Positions 1 through 11,823 of a stretch of DNA of 64,000 bases are shown in pieces; the stretch's first letter is position 1; each line of letters starts with the position of its first letter. The notes under the pieces are model-generated. The model was not told where the DNA came from and did not search any database. It worked only from the letters and a program-made list of their open reading frames with translations. The translations under genes were made by a program, and so were the position numbers. This stretch comes from Candidatus Poribacteria bacterium (lineage in GTDB: Bacteria > Poribacteria > WGA-4E > WGA-3G), in contig OZ242029.1 of assembly GCA_965205015.1 (NCBI GenBank), positions 256,001 to 320,000 of the forward strand, read 5' to 3'.

Positions 1-194
1 ACCTGCTATTGCACGGCTCTGAACCGAATACCTCAGATCGACGCCGTTGCGGATTGACGATGCGGTTCGTGCCGCCTGAGGTCCGCGCCGCAAACGATTG
101 GAACCAACGCGCAATTGTTGCCAGAGGCAGCGATCCGAGTGGGCATTGGGTTCACAATCCACGTCCAGATGCGGATAGCATCCCAGAACGATAA
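1..194 (+). CDS. Phytanoyl-CoA dioxygenase (PhyH) family protein, C-terminal part (5' truncated by window)
   Basis: Frame from nt 3 reads LLLHGSEPNTSDRRRCGLTMRF, matching the H-G-S-x-x-N-x-S-x-x-x-R C-terminal motif of PhyH-type Fe/2OG dioxygenases. Confidence 0.75.
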   Translation, partial: LLLHGSEPNTSDRRRCGLTMRFVPPEVRAANDWNQRAIVARGSDPSGHWVHNPRPDADSIPER

Positions 195-219
195 AATTTT
201 TGAAGGACAATCCTACATA

Positions 220-1476
220 ATGTTTCCACGACGACTTATCTATGCTGCGATCTCAATCAGTAGTGCCGCCTGTTTTGTGCTATTCGGTTATGAATTTATC
301 CGTTCCGTGTCCTCCTCCCTGTTTATTGAAGCGTATGGTGCCGAGAATCTTCCGCGGGGTATGGTGGCGGTCCCACCGAGTATGATCGTGATGCTGTACT
401 GCTACGGTCGACTGCTCTCATGGATGGGAGCGACCCGTGCCTTGGCAATCACCTCGCTTTTTTCTGCTATTTTAATCCTCGGATGCTACGCTGCGCTGTC
501 CCGCGGTATGAGTTTCGCCGCGGCGATCATCTACGTGTTCCGCGAAGCCTATATCGTAATCATCATCGAGCAGTTCTGGTCGTTTGTGAACAGTGTCCTA
601 ACGACCGAACAAGCGAAACGCATTAATGGACCTTTCTGCGCCGTTGCCTCTGTTGGATCGTTTCTCGGTGGTACGCTTGTGAGCAAATTGGCAACCGTGT
701 TAGGTACCGAAGCGTTATTATTATTCACAGCAGGGTCCCTCGTCCCGACGGCGGCCCTTGGTGTGCTTGCCTACAAGTTTGGTGGTGAACCCCAACCCAG
801 TGCAGAAGAGACGGGTGGTAGACTCGGACACATCGGCGTAAAAACGCTCTTGCGTTCCAGATACCTGATTTTCATCGGGGTATTGATCATAAGCACACAG
901 ATAGTGTCCACTGTGCTGGATCTGCGGTTCAATGCGTTGGCTGAAATGGAGAGACCTGATACGGATACACGGACCGCATTTTTCGGCTCGGTCTACGGAA
1001 ACCTCGGATTGGCGGCGGGTATTTTGCAACTGGTCGCTGTGCCACTCGCCCTCAGATTCATCGCACTCCGTTACATTCACCTCACGATCCCGATAGTCCA
1101 CTTCGTCAGTAGTCTTATATTGACGGTTTCTCCCTCACTCCGAACCGGGACAGCGGCGTATGTGACGTTTAAAGCCTTAGATTACTCGCTTTTCCGGGCA
1201 GGCAAGGAACTGTTCTATATGCCGCTCTCTTACGATTCTCGGTATCGCGCGAAACAGGTTATCGATGCTTTCGGGTACCGCTTCTCAAAGGGTGGGAGTG
1301 CAGGCGTGATTGAACTGGTGAGATTGGGCGTAGAGACAATCGCGGGTGTCGCATACTCCATCACGGCTATGGTGGTAGCAGCATTGTGGGCACCGATTGC
1401 CTTCGGTCTGGTGCGGATGTACCAGAAGTTGGAGAAGGTTGAAAAATCAGGAGGCACAACGTCCGAAACGCTGTAA
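220..1476 (+). CDS. NTT/TLC-family (Npt1/Npt2-like ATP/ADP or nucleotide) MFS transporter
   Basis: About 12 hydrophobic segments; motifs QFWSFVN..A.R, YSLFRAGKELFYMPL, RYRAKQVIDAFGYRFSKG typical of TLC-family carriers; ATG at 220 preferred over ORF-track start 115, which overlaps the upstream gene. Confidence 0.75.
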   Translation: MFPRRLIYAAISISSAACFVLFGYEFIRSVSSSLFIEAYGAENLPRGMVAVPPSMIVMLYCYGRLLSWMGATRALAITSLFSAILILGCYAALSRGMSFAAAIIYVFREAYIVIIIEQFWSFVNSVLTTEQAKRINGPFCAVASVGSFLGGTLVSKLATVLGTEALLLFTAGSLVPTAALGVLAYKFGGEPQPSAEETGGRLGHIGVKTLLRSRYLIFIGVLIISTQIVSTVLDLRFNALAEMERPDTDTRTAFFGSVYGNLGLAAGILQLVAVPLALRFIALRYIHLTIPIVHFVSSLILTVSPSLRTGTAAYVTFKALDYSLFRAGKELFYMPLSYDSRYRAKQVIDAFGYRFSKGGSAGVIELVRLGVETIAGVAYSITAMVVAALWAPIAFGLVRMYQKLEKVEKSGGTTSETL

Positions 1477-3230: not shown

Positions 3231-4586
3231 TTATCCGTTTGTCAACGCTTTCTCCGCCTTCAGCCACTCAAGCGTCTGCGCAAACGCTGCGACTGTCGCC
3301 GTGACATCTTCCGCCGTGTGCGCCGCGGTCGTCATTCCACCATTACTGGCGAGATCAATCCCGTTGAGCAGTAGACCGCACCGGAGACGCATCAGCATGT
3401 CGGCGTCGCTACTCCCTTTCAATTTCCGATAATCCCATGCGTATGGATCGAAATCTGAAGTCCGCATCCCCTTTTCACCGTGTCCGACGAGCAGTTTAAG
3501 CCCTGAAAATTCACCGTAAACGACCCAATCCAGCCCATAGTCATCAATGACGTTGTTCAGTTCGGTGCGAAGACGTGCTGCGGTGTGATTCGCTTGTTCA
3601 TGCGGTTCGCCTGTCTTGATGATGTTGAGCATGGCAATGCCAGCAGCCGCGGAGAGGGGATTCGCATTAAAGGTGCCGGGATGCGGCATCTTTAAGCCGT
3701 CGCGTTCTGATTTCATGGAAATGAGTTCAAGCACCTCCGTTTTGCCTGCAAGCGCGCCACCGGGAAGCCCACCCGCCAAAATCTTCGCGAGCGTTGTCAT
3801 ATCCGGCGTGACGTTGTAATGCGCCTGCGCGCCACCGGGTGCGACCCGGAATCCCGTAATAACTTCATCGAAAATCAGCAGCACATCGTGCGCCGCTGTC
3901 AATTCACGCAGCTGCTTCAAAAATGTGCCGTTTGTAGGGACAATACCGAAGGATGCGCCTGTCGGTTCAAGGATGATACAGGCGATGTCTTTATCCGTTT
4001 TCAAGAGCGTTTCAACGGCATCAATGTCGTTCGGTGGACAGAGAAGCGTTGTATTACGCACCTCTTCTGGGATACCGGGGACGTTCATATCAAAAGGTGG
4101 GTATGCGCCTAAGATGACGCTGTCATGCCAACCGTGGAAATGCCCGGCAAATTTCAGCACCTTATTCTTACCGGTATAGGTGCGTGCAAGCCGGATCGCC
4201 ATCAGTGTCGCCTCTGTTCCGGAACTGACGAATCGGACGCGTTCCGCTGAGGGGACCAGTTGTGTGACGAGCGACCCCCATTCCATCTCCAACGGGTGGC
4301 ACGCGCCGTAGTGCGTTCCTCGATGCATCTGTGCTGTTACGGCTTCTACGACCTCCGGCGGATTATGTCCGAGGAGGAGGGCACCGTGTCCCGCCCAATA
4401 GTCAATAAATTGCTTGTCTTCGAGTCCCCATTTCTTCGAGCCATCGGCACGCGTGATATAAACCGGAAACGGCGACATATAGCGTCCATCATGCGTTACG
4501 CCGTCAGGAAATAGATGATTCGCGGCATCGGACATCTCTCGATCTTTTGCAAAAGTCTTTTGGTAGCGTTCTAAAATGGTGTGCAT
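3231..4586 (-). CDS. Class III PLP aminotransferase, glutamate-1-semialdehyde aminomutase (HemL)-like
   Basis: VRFVSSGTEAT, GHFHGWHD, LIFDEVITGFR, TTLAKILAGGLP (PLP lysine), PGTFNANP. Confidence 0.9.
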   Translation of the reverse strand: MHTILERYQKTFAKDREMSDAANHLFPDGVTHDGRYMSPFPVYITRADGSKKWGLEDKQFIDYWAGHGALLLGHNPPEVVEAVTAQMHRGTHYGACHPLEMEWGSLVTQLVPSAERVRFVSSGTEATLMAIRLARTYTGKNKVLKFAGHFHGWHDSVILGAYPPFDMNVPGIPEEVRNTTLLCPPNDIDAVETLLKTDKDIACIILEPTGASFGIVPTNGTFLKQLRELTAAHDVLLIFDEVITGFRVAPGGAQAHYNVTPDMTTLAKILAGGLPGGALAGKTEVLELISMKSERDGLKMPHPGTFNANPLSAAAGIAMLNIIKTGEPHEQANHTAARLRTELNNVIDDYGLDWVVYGEFSGLKLLVGHGEKGMRTSDFDPYAWDYRKLKGSSDADMLMRLRCGLLLNGIDLASNGGMTTAAHTAEDVTATVAAFAQTLEWLKAEKALTNG

Positions 4587-4689
4587 CTTTTTCTCCCCAC
4601 TTTTCTCGGTGTTTGTGAAAATTATATCATATTTCCATTTTATTTGCGAAACGAATTTTCAATGTGGCTCCGTAGCTCTGTTAAAATAT

Positions 4690-4718
4690 TTGACAAATTT
4701 CGCATCCGCTTCTATAAT
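4690..4718 (+). promoter_or_regulatory. Perfect-consensus sigma70 promoter
   Basis: TTGACA(4690-4695)-N17-TATAAT(4713-4718). Confidence 0.85.
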
Positions 4719-4768
4719 AGGATTTATACAATTTTTCCATACGCTAAAATCGACTGAAGGTGCCAAGA

Positions 4769-4936
4769 ATGCAGCACAATCGCACCGCTCTTAACATCGC
4801 CAAACAGATTCTACGGACACACCAGATAGACAGCGTGCCTGTCGCGCCGCGCGGTACCGTGTGCCTCTCAACCACGCGTGTTGCGAACACACTGTTAACA
4901 CCGCCGACCTGCCCCCCCCCACTTTACAAAAATTAA
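4769..4936 (+). CDS. 55-aa leader ORF with C9 tract encoding CPPP (below ORF-track cutoff)
   Basis: GAAGGTG RBS, ATG 4769, MQHNRTALNIAKQILRTHQIDSVPVAPRGTVCLSTTRVANTLLTPPTCPPPLYKN, TAA 4934-4936; C9 at 4912-4920. Confidence 0.6.
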   Translation: MQHNRTALNIAKQILRTHQIDSVPVAPRGTVCLSTTRVANTLLTPPTCPPPLYKN

Positions 4937-4992
4937 GCATTACACGATACAAGCCAACACCGACTTTTATGGTGTCATGCTGTCTTTTTCGC

Positions 4993-5039
4993 GCCCATGC
5001 GTGCTGTTGCTAAACGGTAGCACGTTATGGGCTATTTTT
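4993..5039 (+). terminator. Intrinsic terminator-like hairpin in the leader of the 1205-aa gene
   Basis: GCCCAT-GCGTGCT...AGCACG-TT-ATGGGC stem followed by TATTTTTG. Confidence 0.6.
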
Positions 5040-5125
5040 GTTGCCGTCTCGATGATCTACCGAAAAACCTTCCCATTCAGCAAAGGGACCCCTAACCATA
5101 AAAACGCGAGAGGTATTTTCAAAAA

Positions 5126-8100
5126 ATGTTAAAATCTGTCTACACCTTTTCTGTCTGTTTCATTCTTTTTCTCACATTGCTCCATCCAGCAAACGCAGCC
5201 CCAACTGACCCTGTGAACATCTCCGACGCTGCCCTCCGGGCTGCCATCGAAACCGAACTCGGCAAGAATCCCGGAGACACAATCACCGAAGCGGATATGG
5301 AGCAACTGACGAATCTCAAGAAAAACAACCTTGACATTCGGGAGCTAACGGGTTTGGAGCATGCCATCAACCTCACTGAGCTGCAATTAATTCGCCCGCA
5401 GCCCCGAACTCAGGCAGAGATAGACGCACGCCCTCGTTGGGATCTCACGCCCCTTTCAGGCCTAACGAACTTGGAATGGCTGAACTTTGAAGGTGTTGTA
5501 ATTTTCGACATGAAACCCCTGGCGAATTTAACAAAACTTAAATTCTTATCACTTAACTCTACTTATGGCATCAGCGAGGTCCCCGACCTATCGAAACTCA
5601 CAGCGTTGGTCCACCTAAGACTTACCAGAAATCGCCTCACGAACATAGCAGGGGTCAGAGGTCTCACAAATTTGAGAGACCTAAGTCTTGCGGTAAATCC
5701 GAACCTCTCGGATATATCGCCCCTGACGAGTTTAAGCAATTTGGAAGTTTTGTTCCTTGATGGGACCGCCATCACCCGCGAATCTCTATCAGCCGTGCTA
5801 CCCTCTTTCTCAACAGAAATTGATCAACAGCAAATAGAAGAAGCATACCCTTCTCACAGCATTAAATCGGGGCAATTAAGTTTTGAGAATACCAACATCT
5901 CCGACCTCTCCGTGTTAGACCGCTTACCCAACGTGTTCTTGGAGAGGCTGCGTATGAAATACATGGGCACCGTATCTAGCGGGACACTCTTTTTCCATCT
6001 GACGGATCTCACCCCTTTGGTGGACCTCATGAACAAGGGAAAAGTCATAAATAGCAATACCAATATTTATTTGAGGTATAACCTCGGGCTCGACTATGAG
6101 TCCCTCTACGAAGACATACCCGCACTCTTAGCCGGTAGTGGAGACTTCCTATATACGGAACCTAACCCTATGCTTGAGATAGAACCACCCCCGCCCCCTA
6201 TGGTTGAGATAGACCTTCAGGAAAAGACAGAAGCATCCTACAGGGGGTATCCCAGAACACGCTACACGTTTAAGGTGCGTGCCGTTAATGAACATTCCGT
6301 CCTCTCTCCAGCATCGTTCTTGACACCACGCCTCATGCGAGATGGTGACGACAACCGGCAATTCGAGAAGGTGCCTGTCACCTTTACCGTTACCGCGCCT
6401 GATGGCAGCAGCGAGATAATGGATCCTGTCAAAACAGGACCCGATGGATTGGCATCCGTCACCATTACCCTTGGAAATGAGGGCGAAACGCATACCGTGA
6501 CAGCAGTCGTCCCAGAAAAGACGACATCCGTCGCTGAACTGTTACATTCCGAACTCAGCGTGCGTTTCACCGTCACAGCAGATGGGACAGTCGAACCGCC
6601 GCCGAGACCGCCACAACCGCCCTCTACTCCTAAACTGACGGTGACCTTTGAGGACTACCCCGAAGAGAAGCCGATCGATGAATTTACGCTCACGATCAAA
6701 TTCTCTGAACCCATCATCGGTTTCGAGACGGAGGACCTCACGGTAGAGACAGAACTCACCAGCGGGAAAGGGGACGCAACCGTGCTAGACTTGACCCCCG
6801 AAACACCAATACACCCCGATAGACCCGACCCTGACCCCATACAGACCTACACCGCAACCGTGGAACTTCCGTCCCGCGCAAGAGGCACCGTGACGCTCAT
6901 CGTCCGAGAAGATGCCGCAACCACCCCAGCAACTGCCCCTGTGGAGAAGAGAGGTCCCGCTTCAGACACCCCCTCCGACCCTATCGAGTTCGGACGCAGA
7001 CGTGTGATCGTCTGTCCACCATCTGTCGTGCCTATGGAGACAGTCATCTTCAACGAATTTCGAAACGCTGAAAACGACACACACGACTGGATAGAACTCA
7101 AGAACATCTCCGATGAAGACATGTCCCTCGCCGAATGGGAGATCAGTCTTGTCGTCCCGCACGCCATCAGTCCGGCGGCACCGCAACAGGAAATCTTCGC
7201 AATGGATCGGGATGTCGTCGCCTTTGGAGACTATACACTCCCCGCAGGGGGTATCCTGCTGATCGTCAATACCCACCCCAGCGAGACGGATCTGATACGC
7301 GGGCAGGACATCGAAAATCCCAACCGCAACCCCGATCTCCTCCCCCACTATCTCATCGCACCGGAGATGAAGTTGCCGAGTACCCCCTATCTGCTCATCC
7401 TCCGGAGTGTGCGCGATAAGAACGGTCAACACGAAGGCTTTGAAGACCTCGCAGGCGATTACCACAAAGACGATGTCAACTACGCTACCAACATCTGGCC
7501 CCTGCTCTGTACCCCTGTCTATACCGGCACAGAGGCACGGTTCACCGTAGGCGACATCTATCAGCGGGTCATGGTGCCAAAGTTTTCGTCGAGGACCCTG
7601 AACACCACGCCACAGCCGGAGAAACGCGGCTACCTTGAGGGTGCCTGGATGTTGAGCGACTCTCATAGTGGGTTAGGCTATGACCCCGAGGCACCCCCTG
7701 ACAAGAGTCTCGGCACGCCGGGGTATCCGCTGCCGGGACAACCGACTGAAAAGGGATGGGGAAACATCAGTTTTTCTGAGGTGATGTATGCGACGAACGA
7801 TAACGGAGGACTCTCGCAGTGGATAGAACTCTATAACAACACCTCTGAGATCGTGGACCTCACGGATTGGGAGCTCATGATTGAGGCACGCGACAGCAAA
7901 ACCGTCCGACGTTGGACATCGCTTCGGTTCAAACCGCTACACATCAGACCGAACGCAACCGTGCTACTGGTGGGGCGGAACGCCCGAACCTCAGGGAACA
8001 TCCCTGCCGATCGGATTTACGATCTCTACCGTCGCAACATTGCGGCGTTTCGGCGGCTCGGCGAGGGTGCGAACCGATTCCTCGGATGGGAGGGGTTTGC

Positions 8101-8743
8101 GCTGCGGTTGTTCTCCCCCGACGGCACTTTGGTGGATGTTGCGGGGAACCTCGATGGACGGCAAACGCACGATAAACCGAAGTGGGAGTTGCCCGACGGC
8201 TGGACGGAAACCGGGACCCGTACCTCGTTGATCCGGGGGTATGATGCGCGTGTGCCACGGTTAGGGACGCTGCCCGGCAGTTTCGTACGGGCGGCGGATA
8301 CAGCGTTGCTCAAGGGATATTCGTATTGGGGACTTCCGACAGATAATGGGACCCCGGGGTATCGGCGGGGGAGTCCCCTGCCTGTAACACTGTCGAGTGT
8401 GCGTGCGGATCGTGCCGAGGGCGGGGTCGTAGTGGACTGGACGACGCAATCGGAGATGGAGAACGCCGGGTTCTATGTGCTGCGAAGTCAGAACAGCAAA
8501 ACGGGATTCGTGAAAGTGAGCCCGACGCTGATTCCTGGAGCAGGCACGACTGCCGAACGGAGCACGTATACCTACCGAGATACCACGGCGCAACCGAATG
8601 TGCCGTATTATTATCGGCTCGAAGAGGTCTCGCTATCCGGGGAGCGTCGTGTTTTGGCGACCGTGCGGCTACGCGGGCATCTCTCCGCTGCGGGAAAGAC
8701 GCTTTGGAAGTGGGCGGATGTGAAATCCGAGATTTCCCCTTGA
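5126..8743 (+). CDS. Large secreted surface protein: internalin-like LRRs, Ig-like domains, two lamin-tail-like domains, PLPVTL domain and C-terminal GKxxxxW motif
   Basis: Signal peptide (..HPANA); DAALRAAIETELGK cap and LxxLxL repeats; Pro-rich linkers; 'IFNEF..DWIELKN' and 'FSEVMY..QWIELYN' lamin-tail motifs; ends LSAAGKTLWKWADVK. Confidence 0.85.
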   Translation: MLKSVYTFSVCFILFLTLLHPANAAPTDPVNISDAALRAAIETELGKNPGDTITEADMEQLTNLKKNNLDIRELTGLEHAINLTELQLIRPQPRTQAEIDARPRWDLTPLSGLTNLEWLNFEGVVIFDMKPLANLTKLKFLSLNSTYGISEVPDLSKLTALVHLRLTRNRLTNIAGVRGLTNLRDLSLAVNPNLSDISPLTSLSNLEVLFLDGTAITRESLSAVLPSFSTEIDQQQIEEAYPSHSIKSGQLSFENTNISDLSVLDRLPNVFLERLRMKYMGTVSSGTLFFHLTDLTPLVDLMNKGKVINSNTNIYLRYNLGLDYESLYEDIPALLAGSGDFLYTEPNPMLEIEPPPPPMVEIDLQEKTEASYRGYPRTRYTFKVRAVNEHSVLSPASFLTPRLMRDGDDNRQFEKVPVTFTVTAPDGSSEIMDPVKTGPDGLASVTITLGNEGETHTVTAVVPEKTTSVAELLHSELSVRFTVTADGTVEPPPRPPQPPSTPKLTVTFEDYPEEKPIDEFTLTIKFSEPIIGFETEDLTVETELTSGKGDATVLDLTPETPIHPDRPDPDPIQTYTATVELPSRARGTVTLIVREDAATTPATAPVEKRGPASDTPSDPIEFGRRRVIVCPPSVVPMETVIFNEFRNAENDTHDWIELKNISDEDMSLAEWEISLVVPHAISPAAPQQEIFAMDRDVVAFGDYTLPAGGILLIVNTHPSETDLIRGQDIENPNRNPDLLPHYLIAPEMKLPSTPYLLILRSVRDKNGQHEGFEDLAGDYHKDDVNYATNIWPLLCTPVYTGTEARFTVGDIYQRVMVPKFSSRTLNTTPQPEKRGYLEGAWMLSDSHSGLGYDPEAPPDKSLGTPGYPLPGQPTEKGWGNISFSEVMYATNDNGGLSQWIELYNNTSEIVDLTDWELMIEARDSKTVRRWTSLRFKPLHIRPNATVLLVGRNARTSGNIPADRIYDLYRRNIAAFRRLGEGANRFLGWEGFALRLFSPDGTLVDVAGNLDGRQTHDKPKWELPDGWTETGTRTSLIRGYDARVPRLGTLPGSFVRAADTALLKGYSYWGLPTDNGTPGYRRGSPLPVTLSSVRADRAEGGVVVDWTTQSEMENAGFYVLRSQNSKTGFVKVSPTLIPGAGTTAERSTYTYRDTTAQPNVPYYYRLEEVSLSGERRVLATVRLRGHLSAAGKTLWKWADVKSEISP

Positions 8744-8768
8744 TAATCTCTCCAAGATACGGTATAAT
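8740..8768 (+). promoter_or_regulatory. sigma70 promoter (probably the original argJ promoter)
   Basis: TTGATA-N17-TATAAT. Confidence 0.65.
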
Positions 8769-8829: not shown

Positions 8830-8905
8830 CACTTATTGTTACCGACCCGCCAACGACTGTGCTTGAAAACAGCGACGATGCCGCGGATAGGTATGGAGAG
8901 GTTTG

Positions 8906-9751
8906 ATGTCTACTGACAATTCAAAGGCAGATCGCGATTTTTTAGACCCTGTTTTCAAAGAGGTCATGACGTTTAACTTCGCTCAATTGGCTCTGCCTGT
9001 CGAAACGCAAGTGGAAATTAGTCGCCTTCCTCGGACGATGGATGCTCTTATTGTTCTTGAACAGCCCCTTGAACGTGAGAAAGTTCGTGAGCAAACGGTT
9101 TTCAATTACTTCCGGGTCTACAATCAGATTGAATTCAAAGGGAAAAACGATCCGCTCACACGGGACGAGTATAATCTCATTCGAGGGCGAAGCTATCTTT
9201 ATCTTGGGGAAAAGAAGATCTCCGCGTCTTTAATGACAGTTACAATCATTTCCGCCCGGCAACCGAGGAACGTCCTCTATCATTCCACTCTCGACGTGAA
9301 ATGGAAATCGGAAAGCGCAGGACATTACAAAAGTGTAGACCTCTTTCCAGTTCACCTCTTTGTGTGCAACGAGCTTGAACTCACCCCAAAGAATTACCCG
9401 CTCCTTCTGTTTGCAGCATCAAAGGAGAAGTTTCGTCAATTTGTTGAGCAAATTGTAGGCGAGGACAATATAACTTACATCTACTATGCTTCGCGTGTTG
9501 AACCAACAGTCACAAAAGAGGTTTTAAAAATGGCAAGAAAACAGAATTTATACGAAAAACAACTTCAGCGAATCGTTGATAGCATGGGGGCGGATCTGCT
9601 ACAAAAAATGACCCCGGAAGAACGTATGCATGGATTGACGGTTTCTGAAAGGTTAGCAGGACTCAGCCCAGAAGATTTACGCGCTTTGGACCCGAAAGTG
9701 AAAGCAGCACTCTTGGAGATGTTGAATCAACCAGACGAAACGCAAGTTTAA
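8906..9751 (+). CDS. Rpn-like / PD-(D/E)XK nuclease-family protein with C-terminal ERLxGL repeats
   Basis: D..FK N-terminus, D(ALIV)...IEFK catalytic-like motif, tail PEERMHGLTVSERLAGLSPED; GGAGAGG RBS. Confidence 0.6.
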   Translation: MSTDNSKADRDFLDPVFKEVMTFNFAQLALPVETQVEISRLPRTMDALIVLEQPLEREKVREQTVFNYFRVYNQIEFKGKNDPLTRDEYNLIRGRSYLYLGEKKISASLMTVTIISARQPRNVLYHSTLDVKWKSESAGHYKSVDLFPVHLFVCNELELTPKNYPLLLFAASKEKFRQFVEQIVGEDNITYIYYASRVEPTVTKEVLKMARKQNLYEKQLQRIVDSMGADLLQKMTPEERMHGLTVSERLAGLSPEDLRALDPKVKAALLEMLNQPDETQV

Positions 9752-11577: not shown

Positions 11578-11652
11578 GCGGGAGTAGCTCAGTGGTAGAG
11601 CTCCACCTTGCCAAGGTGGAGGTCGCGAGTTCAAATCTCGTCTCCCGCTCCA
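11578..11652 (+). tRNA. tRNA-Gly(GCC)
   Basis: GCGGGAG/CTCCCGC acceptor stem, anticodon loop TTGCCAA, GTTCAAAT T-loop, encoded CCA. Confidence 0.96.
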
Positions 11653-11660
11653 TCTTCTAT

Positions 11661-11735
11661 GGTGGCGTAGCCAAGTGGTAAGGCCAGAGTCTGCAAAACT
11701 CTTATTCGTCGGTTCGATTCCGACCGCCACCTCCA
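11661..11735 (+). tRNA. tRNA-Cys(GCA)
   Basis: GGTGGCG/CGCCACC acceptor stem, loop CTGCAAA, GTTCGAT, U73, encoded CCA. Confidence 0.96.
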
Positions 11736-11749
11736 TTCTTTTTTTCGAC

Positions 11750-11823
11750 GGGCGGTTAGCTCAGGTGGCTAGAGCGTTTGCTTGACATGCAAGAGGTCAC
11801 TGGTTCAAGTCCAGTACCGCCCA
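11750..11823 (+). tRNA. tRNA-Val(GAC)
   Basis: GGGCGGT/ACCGCCC acceptor stem, loop TTGACAT, GTTCAAGT; CCA not encoded. Confidence 0.94.

Follow-up and report, generated by a model that had tools for sequence, protein, structure and literature searches.

Homopolymeric tracts of G or C that act as contingency loci in coding regions or promoter spacers are known from Neisseria, Haemophilus, Campylobacter and the fim genes of Bordetella. The leaders of cwpV and flgB in Clostridioides difficile mediate phase variation of surface structures via premature transcription termination, based on site-specific DNA inversion and with no leader peptide involved. In the pyrBI operon of Escherichia coli a leader open reading frame (ORF) of fixed frame runs through a terminator which is blocked by a close ribosome, and UTP is sensed via pausing of RNA polymerase. 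ORF switching by poly-G is reported for Campylobacter jejuni (PMC11955535). The closest described systems are the pili pil1 and pil3 of Streptococcus gallolyticus where, according to Danne et al. (2014, PMC3894217), GCAGA repeats in a leader-peptide gene shift its frame. A short peptide stops there 39 bp (pil1) or 33 bp (pil3) before a stem-loop terminator (-18.7 kcal/mol in pil1) and expression is low; in out-of-frame variants the stop is found within or after the terminator and transcription is raised. This was shown by mutation of the ATG, added stops and deletion of the terminator, and isolates differ in repeat number (PMC3894217). Here, we describe a leader of comparable design in a stretch of 64,000 nt (the window) from a Candidatus Poribacteria bacterium (assembly GCA_965205015.1, contig OZ242029.1, positions 256,001 to 320,000), located in front of a gene for a protein with leucine-rich repeats (LRR) and a lamin-tail domain (LTD). 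We consider it likely, with clear reservations, that a run of nine C in its leader ORF is a heritable, stochastic switch of the LRR-LTD gene acting via a leader-peptide attenuator.

The leader is contained in a gap of 540 nt between two divergent genes, a class-III aminotransferase gene on the minus strand (3231-4586) as upstream neighbour and the target gene on the plus strand (5126-8743), which encodes a protein of 1205 amino acids with a hydrophobic N-terminus. Every sequence feature listed in the earlier note was recovered, beginning with a consensus sigma-70-type promoter TTGACA-17 nt-TATAAT at 4690-4718 (-35 box 4690-4695, -10 box 4713-4718; score 12/12). It is the single exact match to TTGACA-N16-18-TATAAT in 64 kb (mean of 0.01 in shuffled sequences, with a match in 1/100 shuffles), and transcription presumably starts near 4725. 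A Shine-Dalgarno (SD)-like GAAGGT (4756-4761, with GAAGG at 4756-4760) is found 8 nt 5' of the ATG at 4769 which opens a leader ORF of 55 codons, MQHNR...CPPPLYKN (4769-4936). Near its end the C9 homopolymer (4912-4920) encodes Pro-Pro-Pro and is the proposed slippage site. It is the sole run of at least eight G or C in the window, and about 0.12-0.21 runs of at least nine C are expected. The tract is followed by the block ACTTTACAAAAATTAAGCAT (4921-4940) containing the stop TAA of this short frame (4934-4936), and by a U-rich block CATGCTGTCTTTTTCGC at 4976-4992, immediately 5' of a terminator-like hairpin. This hairpin (4993-5032) comprises 17 pairs with one bulge and the loop CUAAA, has a folding energy of -23.5 kcal/mol (z = -3.0; equally stable folds in 1/200 shuffles) and continues directly into the U-rich tail UAUUUUUGUUG (5033-5043). 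In a simple terminator scan of the window it was not listed, presumably because of the bulge. The target gene has its own SD-like site GAGAGG (5108-5113), and between 4751 and 5126 no further plus-strand promoter-like site scores 9/12 or better, hence none lies between hairpin and main ATG. A repeat search around the leader gave only short, chance-looking pairs.

What follows the tract depends on its length. With C9 translation would end at TAA 4934-4936, 56 nt 5' of the hairpin. The +1 frame (C10) ends at TAA 5011-5013 inside the hairpin loop, and the -1 frame (C8) at TAA 5130-5132, so that this stop and the main ATG (5126) overlap as ATGTTAA. This suggests the following course of events. RNA polymerase would start near 4725, and ribosomes would load at the ATG at 4769 and translate through the poly-C. 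With C9, or any tract of the same frame class, the ribosome would stop at 4934-4936, hairpin and U-tail would form behind RNA polymerase and most transcripts would end near 5040, leaving the LRR-LTD gene low or OFF; the C9 allele of the window is thus predicted to represent the low state. Replication slippage that adds or removes a C would bring the ribosome into a frame which enters the hairpin (stop 5011) or crosses it (stop 5130), where it would block the hairpin so that transcription enters the LRR-LTD gene (ON). Translation of the ORF, termination at the hairpin, the identity of the ON frame and the rate of switching are what we infer here.

The earlier note had inferred a combination of slippage with an attenuator outside the target gene. 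This combination is already published and tested by experiment for pil1/pil3 (PMC3894217) and therefore represents no new principle. In that system promoter, leader ORF with ribosome-binding site, ATG and repeat, terminator-like hairpin and surface gene follow each other in the same order as here, and the distance from short stop to hairpin (39 and 33 bp) compares with 56 nt in the window. Within this class, which is mechanistic and not a homology family, the poribacterial leaders show a repeat in the leader ORF that varies between relatives (for those known only as proteins the lengths are inferred), out-of-frame changes that give longer peptides stopping within or after the hairpin, and a stem-loop some tens of nt past the short stop, which is clear in the window, weaker in the homologous leader L016 and not evident in genome OZ241845 (both described below). 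The differences are equally plain. The repeat is a C homopolymer instead of a pentanucleotide (GCAGA, in 13-22 copies), the sequences are not homologous, the host belongs to a distant phylum without cultivation, and the leader occurs across several paralogues and lineages of an LRR-LTD family. Moreover, pil1/pil3 were proven by mutants according to the same source, whereas the poribacterial leader is known from sequence comparison alone, which establishes its anatomy, its conservation, the tract differences among close relatives and the selection for open long frames. Since the geometry is the same, with the short stop before the hairpin and the long stops in the loop or beyond, the locus is read as a convergent member of this class and probably represents a homopolymer version of a known switch that is distributed over a family of surface proteins in this uncultivated phylum. 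In literature searches, mostly requiring all terms, the pili of S. gallolyticus were the sole experimentally proven repeat-slippage leader-peptide terminator switch found, and no paper addressing phase variation in Poribacteria was found, the one hit being a review of single-cell methods. If the proposal is true, an independent homopolymer version in a distant phylum would mark the design as a solution of general use rather than a peculiarity of streptococci.

The other known systems share single aspects only. As in contingency loci a homopolymer of about nine or more is proposed to switch a surface protein on and off by slippage, but it is located in a separate small ORF and not in the target ORF or in the -35/-10 spacer: C9 starts 193 nt 3' of the -10 box and ends 205 nt 5' of the main ATG. 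As in pyrBI long frames cross the hairpin, which has a U-rich stretch on its 5' side, but here the frame itself varies. With cwpV and flgB the leader has in common a switch in the 5' region that is proposed to act at premature termination and a surface target, but repeat slippage and a leader peptide would take the place of DNA inversion without leader peptide. A check for attenuators of the trp/his type gave Pro as the only codon run, and this run is due to the poly-C. Folding predicted no antiterminator in competition with the hairpin; the long-range pairings that it did predict lie on either side of the hairpin without invading it and are invariant.

Evidence for variation of the tract comes from called ORFs in other assemblies that were found by protein search with the leader ORF of 55 amino acids, and from the cluster mates of these ORFs. 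Four of them, P0127 (..YPPPLYKY), P0121 (..YPPPPLYKY, 56 amino acids), P0122 (..YPPPTLQIL.., 95 amino acids) and P0129 (..YPPPPTLQIL.., 96 amino acids), are identical up to the proline run and fit tracts of n, n+3, n+1 and n+4 C's, respectively. A profile search of 1.84 billion representatives yielded seven proteins with E<=0.001, to which cluster members were added. They provided a second set, close to L016, which consists of P0131 (..SAPPPLYKN, short frame) and P0136 (..SAPPPHFTKIK.., 107 amino acids, -1 frame), whose first 51 amino acids are identical. Together these two sets mean that all three frames occur in nature. Where the flanks are identical, the proline run of relatives thus deviates by +1, +2, +3 or +4 nt, as derived from translations, and the paralogues described below range from C10 to C19, which bears out the variable tract length anticipated by the earlier note. 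Altogether 24 distinct leader ORFs with a tract were collected, eight in the short and 16 in a long frame. Natural long-frame forms that cross hairpin and U-tail comprise P0122, P0129, P0130, P0133-P0140 (including P0136) and L016, and in other lineages the U-tail is still recognizable in the long-frame translations as GLFLLS, AFFVAF, AFFVV or GSFVVG. P0140, a long-frame leader ORF of 113 amino acids, suggests a second leader copy in the window's own genome. In current annotation such leader ORFs appear as hypothetical proteins of 55-143 amino acids, the length being set by the tract. The 90%-identity cluster of P0121 also lists the unrelated P0126 (307 amino acids), probably a clustering artefact, which was left out of the counts.

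For comparison at the DNA level 23 loci (280 kb) were collected by means of an alignment of LRR-LTD proteins. Search with the window leader by blastn and nhmmer against the window and these loci revealed L016, from another Poribacteria genome, as the sole homologue (window 4752-5046 versus L016 3236-3535; 74% identity, E 6e-44). The match spans from SD and ATG to the end of the U-tail and the flanking sequence is unalignable. In L016 a promoter with a score of 11/12 precedes the leader and a gene for an LRR-LTD protein of 1488 amino acids follows it; the upstream neighbour is a PMT_2 protein instead of the aminotransferase. These sharp boundaries and the changed neighbour suggest that the leader travels with the LRR-LTD gene. 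Identity is unevenly distributed. The ORF body reaches 69%, the tract with the next 20 nt 93% (27 of the 29 positions in 4912-4940 are identical, making ACTTTACAAAAATTAAGCAT the most conserved block), the part up to and through the hairpin 75-77% and the sequence beyond it 50%. The block CTGAAGG / CTGAAAGG is kept, the U-rich block 5' of the hairpin is unchanged as TGCTGTCTTTTTCG, and the U-tail is kept as CUCUUUUGUUG. The U-rich block is predicted to pair with the leader start region AAGAAUGCAGCA, an invariant pairing without covariation. The hairpin is retained in L016 by way of two pairs with compensatory changes (U-A to C-G and G-C to A-U), which is counted for the switch. The L016 tract itself is interrupted (C5-T-C5) and currently in a long frame. 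All lineages retain the SD and ATG and have the tract about 47-51 codons away from the ATG.

Two minor features of these leaders are mentioned here. The conserved CAAAAAUU beside the short-frame stop (4926-4933) is complementary to the U-tail (5032-5039), and in window and L016 alike a pairing of the two, with CAAAAAU as the pairing part, is predicted; the 126-nt fold of the window has z = -4.0 and the fold of L016 z = -1.5. Between the L016 hairpin and its main gene two T9 runs occur (3565-3590, CTCTTTTTTTTTCTCTTTTTTTTTA), and, judged by the end of P0136, a related ORF, the length of these T9 runs may vary between relatives as well.

The earlier note had further proposed a search for related leader ORFs with poly-C and a hairpin in front of other surface-protein genes. 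An architecture of promoter, small ORF, poly-C and early stop was encountered before LRR-LTD genes in L016 and also in genome OZ241845. When G/C runs of at least eight were scanned in the 23 loci, five of its seven LTD-gene loci exhibited C12, C12, C17, C10 and C19, located 293-442 nt 5' of the main ATG. The five tract leaders are homologous to each other and three of them (L011, L013, L014) have a promoter of 12/12. About 45-50 codons of a conserved ATG ORF (MANRVVNFAVKAV..) precede the tract. Past it, the stop is located at 17-24 nt in one frame and at 101-198 nt in the other two. At present L014 is in the short frame and the four others are in long frames. In the sixth locus (L012) the tract region is deleted and a remnant leader is found, and the seventh (L015) has an unrelated leader. 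A search with a peptide profile in all six-frame translations added only OZ241845 leaders, including the L012 remnant. Window, L016 and OZ241845 paralogues share a promoter and a small ORF with ribosome-binding site and ATG that is separate from the target gene, and the N-termini of window-type and OZ-type leaders are alike (MQHNRTALNIAKQIL versus MHNRGVNFAIKAVR). When population variants of the OZ leader ORFs were looked up by exact match, the L010 ORF alone was present in the collection, as a singleton.

These leaders are decorated with various repeats. Between promoter and leader ORF G/C-rich palindromes CCCCCCGACCCCCCGCAAGCAGGGGGAGAGGAA are found in one or two copies at approximately 2145-2235 in L009, 2070-2160 in L010 and 2210-2345 in L014; they are absent from the other two of the five and look like small insertion elements resembling repetitive extragenic palindromes (REP). 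From the poly-C tract to the main ATG modules of about 26 nt (AGGCTGTGCA..TTCGTAGCATAAC) are repeated in L009-L014 (e.g., L013 2700-2781) with a copy number that varies among the paralogous leaders. In addition, a conserved hairpin GGGGCUUUUGAAAGCCCC occurs in OZ leaders about 50 nt 5' of the main ATG.

Whether the frames past the tract are open by chance was analysed with 5000 dinucleotide shuffles per locus, asking how often both post-tract frames are as open as observed. This was the case in 0.18% of shuffles for L016, 0.32% for L011, 0.02% for L013 and 0.4% for L014, so that the shifted frames, whose openness the earlier note had proposed to test, stay open beyond chance in these four loci. 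With the early stop of the third frame required too, the fractions were 0-0.18% for the four loci and 3.1% for the window. Judged from these shuffles, long open frames are under selection after the tract. Since the window's own pattern is only mildly unusual, the case rests on the relatives.

The same data speak to an alternative in which there is no regulatory role and the poly-C is a neutral hotspot or a homopolymer artefact of assembly in a coincidental arrangement of ORF and hairpin. It is true that C9 is not very rare (about 0.1-0.2 expected per 64 kb, which corresponds to dozens per 5.65-Mb genome), that homopolymers are error-prone in assemblies and that leaders drifting at random among three frames would likewise be short in eight of 24 cases. 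However, at least ten C's are found at the same place in five of seven paralogous leaders, whereas the 16 loci from other genomes together contain one G/C run of at least eight, and L015 contains two more. The flanks are conserved, the frame pattern is not random, and differences of +2, +3 and +4 nt in otherwise identical sequences are atypical of sequencing errors. Because the tract recurs at the same place in paralogues and because of the frame statistics, we regard a neutral hotspot or artefact as very improbable.

The substitutions between window and L016 reveal what is not selected in the leader. They are distributed over codon positions 1/2/3 as 16/12/15 (p = 0.65), and the codon differences comprise four synonymous and 24 non-synonymous ones, so that, judged from this comparison, the leader peptide is without purifying selection. 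A functional small protein encoded by the leader was considered as well and rejected, as no codon-position bias is seen in any of the six frames. Selection on ribosome stop sites without peptide selection is the prediction for a position-sensing leader: with an unselected peptide and a conserved frame, the position of the ribosome matters and not its product.

Missing selection on the peptide can also be read in favour of an RNA-level element. The transcript of about 315 nt from promoter to hairpin would then be a non-coding RNA, either a stand-alone small RNA (sRNA) or an RNA-level leader, whose C-rich tract with its conserved 3' flank binds a G-rich RNA or a protein, tract length tuning this interaction and the ORF being incidental. 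This would fit the unit's own promoter and terminator-like end, the predicted unpaired state of the tract and the fact that tract and next 20 nt (93%), and not the ORF body, are best conserved. A variable homopolymer in an sRNA-targeted leader is reported for Helicobacter pylori tlpB/RepG (PMC8295292). Nevertheless, in independent lineages two of the post-tract frames run on further than expected by chance and the third stops at once. Nothing in an element that acts as RNA only would call for such a pattern to be maintained, and SD, ATG and the ATG-to-tract distance are preserved across lineages as given above. The fold of the whole leader is unremarkable (z = -1.0), and in a scan of 4300-5500 with Rfam 15 no match was obtained (best E = 0.33; the three listed matches are far below gathering scores and none is on the leader). 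We therefore hold an exclusive RNA element to be rather unlikely, but an RNA role and the proposed switch are compatible, since the terminated leader could act as RNA too.

A further alternative accepts the frame-switching upstream ORF and questions its output, which would be Rho-dependent polarity, with termination by Rho on the long C-rich and G-poor stretch that a short upstream ORF leaves untranslated, or unmasking of the main SD or reinitiation at the main gene, the intrinsic hairpin being secondary. It derives its appeal from the OZ241845 leaders, which have tract and frame pattern without a clear intrinsic terminator. For Rho speaks the C/G ratio past the tract (window 1.7, L016 1.9, OZ leaders 1.4-2.6; 1.02 for the whole window). 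For control of translation speaks a UCCU segment in OZ leaders with the main AGGAGG as its predicted pairing partner, and the C8 frame of the window that ends on the main ATG. On the other side, this anti-SD pairing lacks covariation support, and hairpin and U-tail are kept in the window, in L016 and, judged by translations, in further lineages. The translational coupling via ATGTTAA that the earlier note had proposed did not hold up as a conserved feature and was rejected: the overlap of stop and start is absent in L016, where the long frames stop 207 and 108 nt upstream of the main ATG and no frame gets to it. Such a different output seems rather unlikely to us, although it may apply especially to the OZ241845 leaders, and termination at the hairpin under control of the leader-peptide frame is retained as the preferred mechanism.

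Several observations weigh against this mechanism. No convincing intrinsic terminator was found in the OZ241845 leaders: L011 has a 5-bp hairpin with a U-rich tail, crossed by its long frames, and the consensus fold of the OZ leaders includes no terminator and compensatory changes in 3/60 pairs. The L016 hairpin is weaker and has an internal loop (z = -0.9), 41/200 shuffles folding as well. Homology between window-type and OZ-type leaders is not established by the comparison of their sequences (hhalign probability 26%, pairwise E 7e-4). A window-type leader is absent 5' of L001, the closest relative among the genome contigs searched, and of L004, L006, L007 and L018; L002, L003 and L005 have too little upstream DNA for such a judgement. 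The long frames of the window are as open as observed in 9.8% of the 5000 shuffles, so its frame pattern on its own is only mildly unusual (p about 0.03-0.10), and an open ORF body, taken by itself, lacks significance (24% and 13% of shuffles are open too). The relatives' tract lengths were inferred from translations and not from DNA, errors of homopolymer assembly are possible especially in long-read genomes, and protein searches carry an ascertainment bias, as leaders without a called ORF escape them. A protein search for leader ORFs of at least 98 amino acids found none, which is weak evidence. The absence of purifying selection on the peptide belongs to this list as well.

If the proposed switch is true, its presence in front of several LRR/lamin-tail paralogues would give these bacteria a variable surface. 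A broader version would have poly-C switches phylum-wide, one per LRR-LTD paralogue, with stalling that depends on elongation factor P (EF-P) and possibly slippage of RNA polymerase on the long tracts as physiological, non-heritable input; we attach a low probability to it. Whichever the frame, the tract encodes polyproline, and PPP motifs are the general knowledge behind the idea of EF-P-dependent stalling, which is pure inference for this polyproline run. Were this version true, each cell line would display a different heritable and reversible set of eukaryote-like surface proteins, and with tracts reaching C19 and polyproline in all frames the leader would be a hybrid of stochastic and responsive attenuator without described counterpart.

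The protein behind the leader shows clear Pfam matches to LTD (8.6e-18) and LRR_4 (2.2e-9), and its LRR part resembles internalins only below curated cut-offs. The LRR-LTD family is large in Poribacteria, with 2594 proteins at E<=0.001 among 8000 scored, and a paralogue 74% identical to the main protein apparently originates from the same genome. For eukaryote-like repeat proteins of this kind a role in the contact of sponge symbionts with the host is widely assumed. Overlapping the end of the LRR-LTD gene, a promoter-like TTGATA-17-TATAAT with a score of 11/12 is found on the plus strand (8740-8768), followed by an ORF of 282 amino acids (8903-9751) without match in Pfam or NCBIfam. A tRNA/tmRNA scan of the window detected only a cluster of Gly(GCC), Cys(GCA) and Val(GAC) tRNAs on the plus strand (11578-11823), far from the leader. 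At the beginning of the window an ORF of 453 amino acids (115-1476, plus strand) matches the Pfam family of TLC ATP/ADP transporters (E 3e-18), a type of nucleotide transporter best known from obligate intracellular bacteria and plastids.

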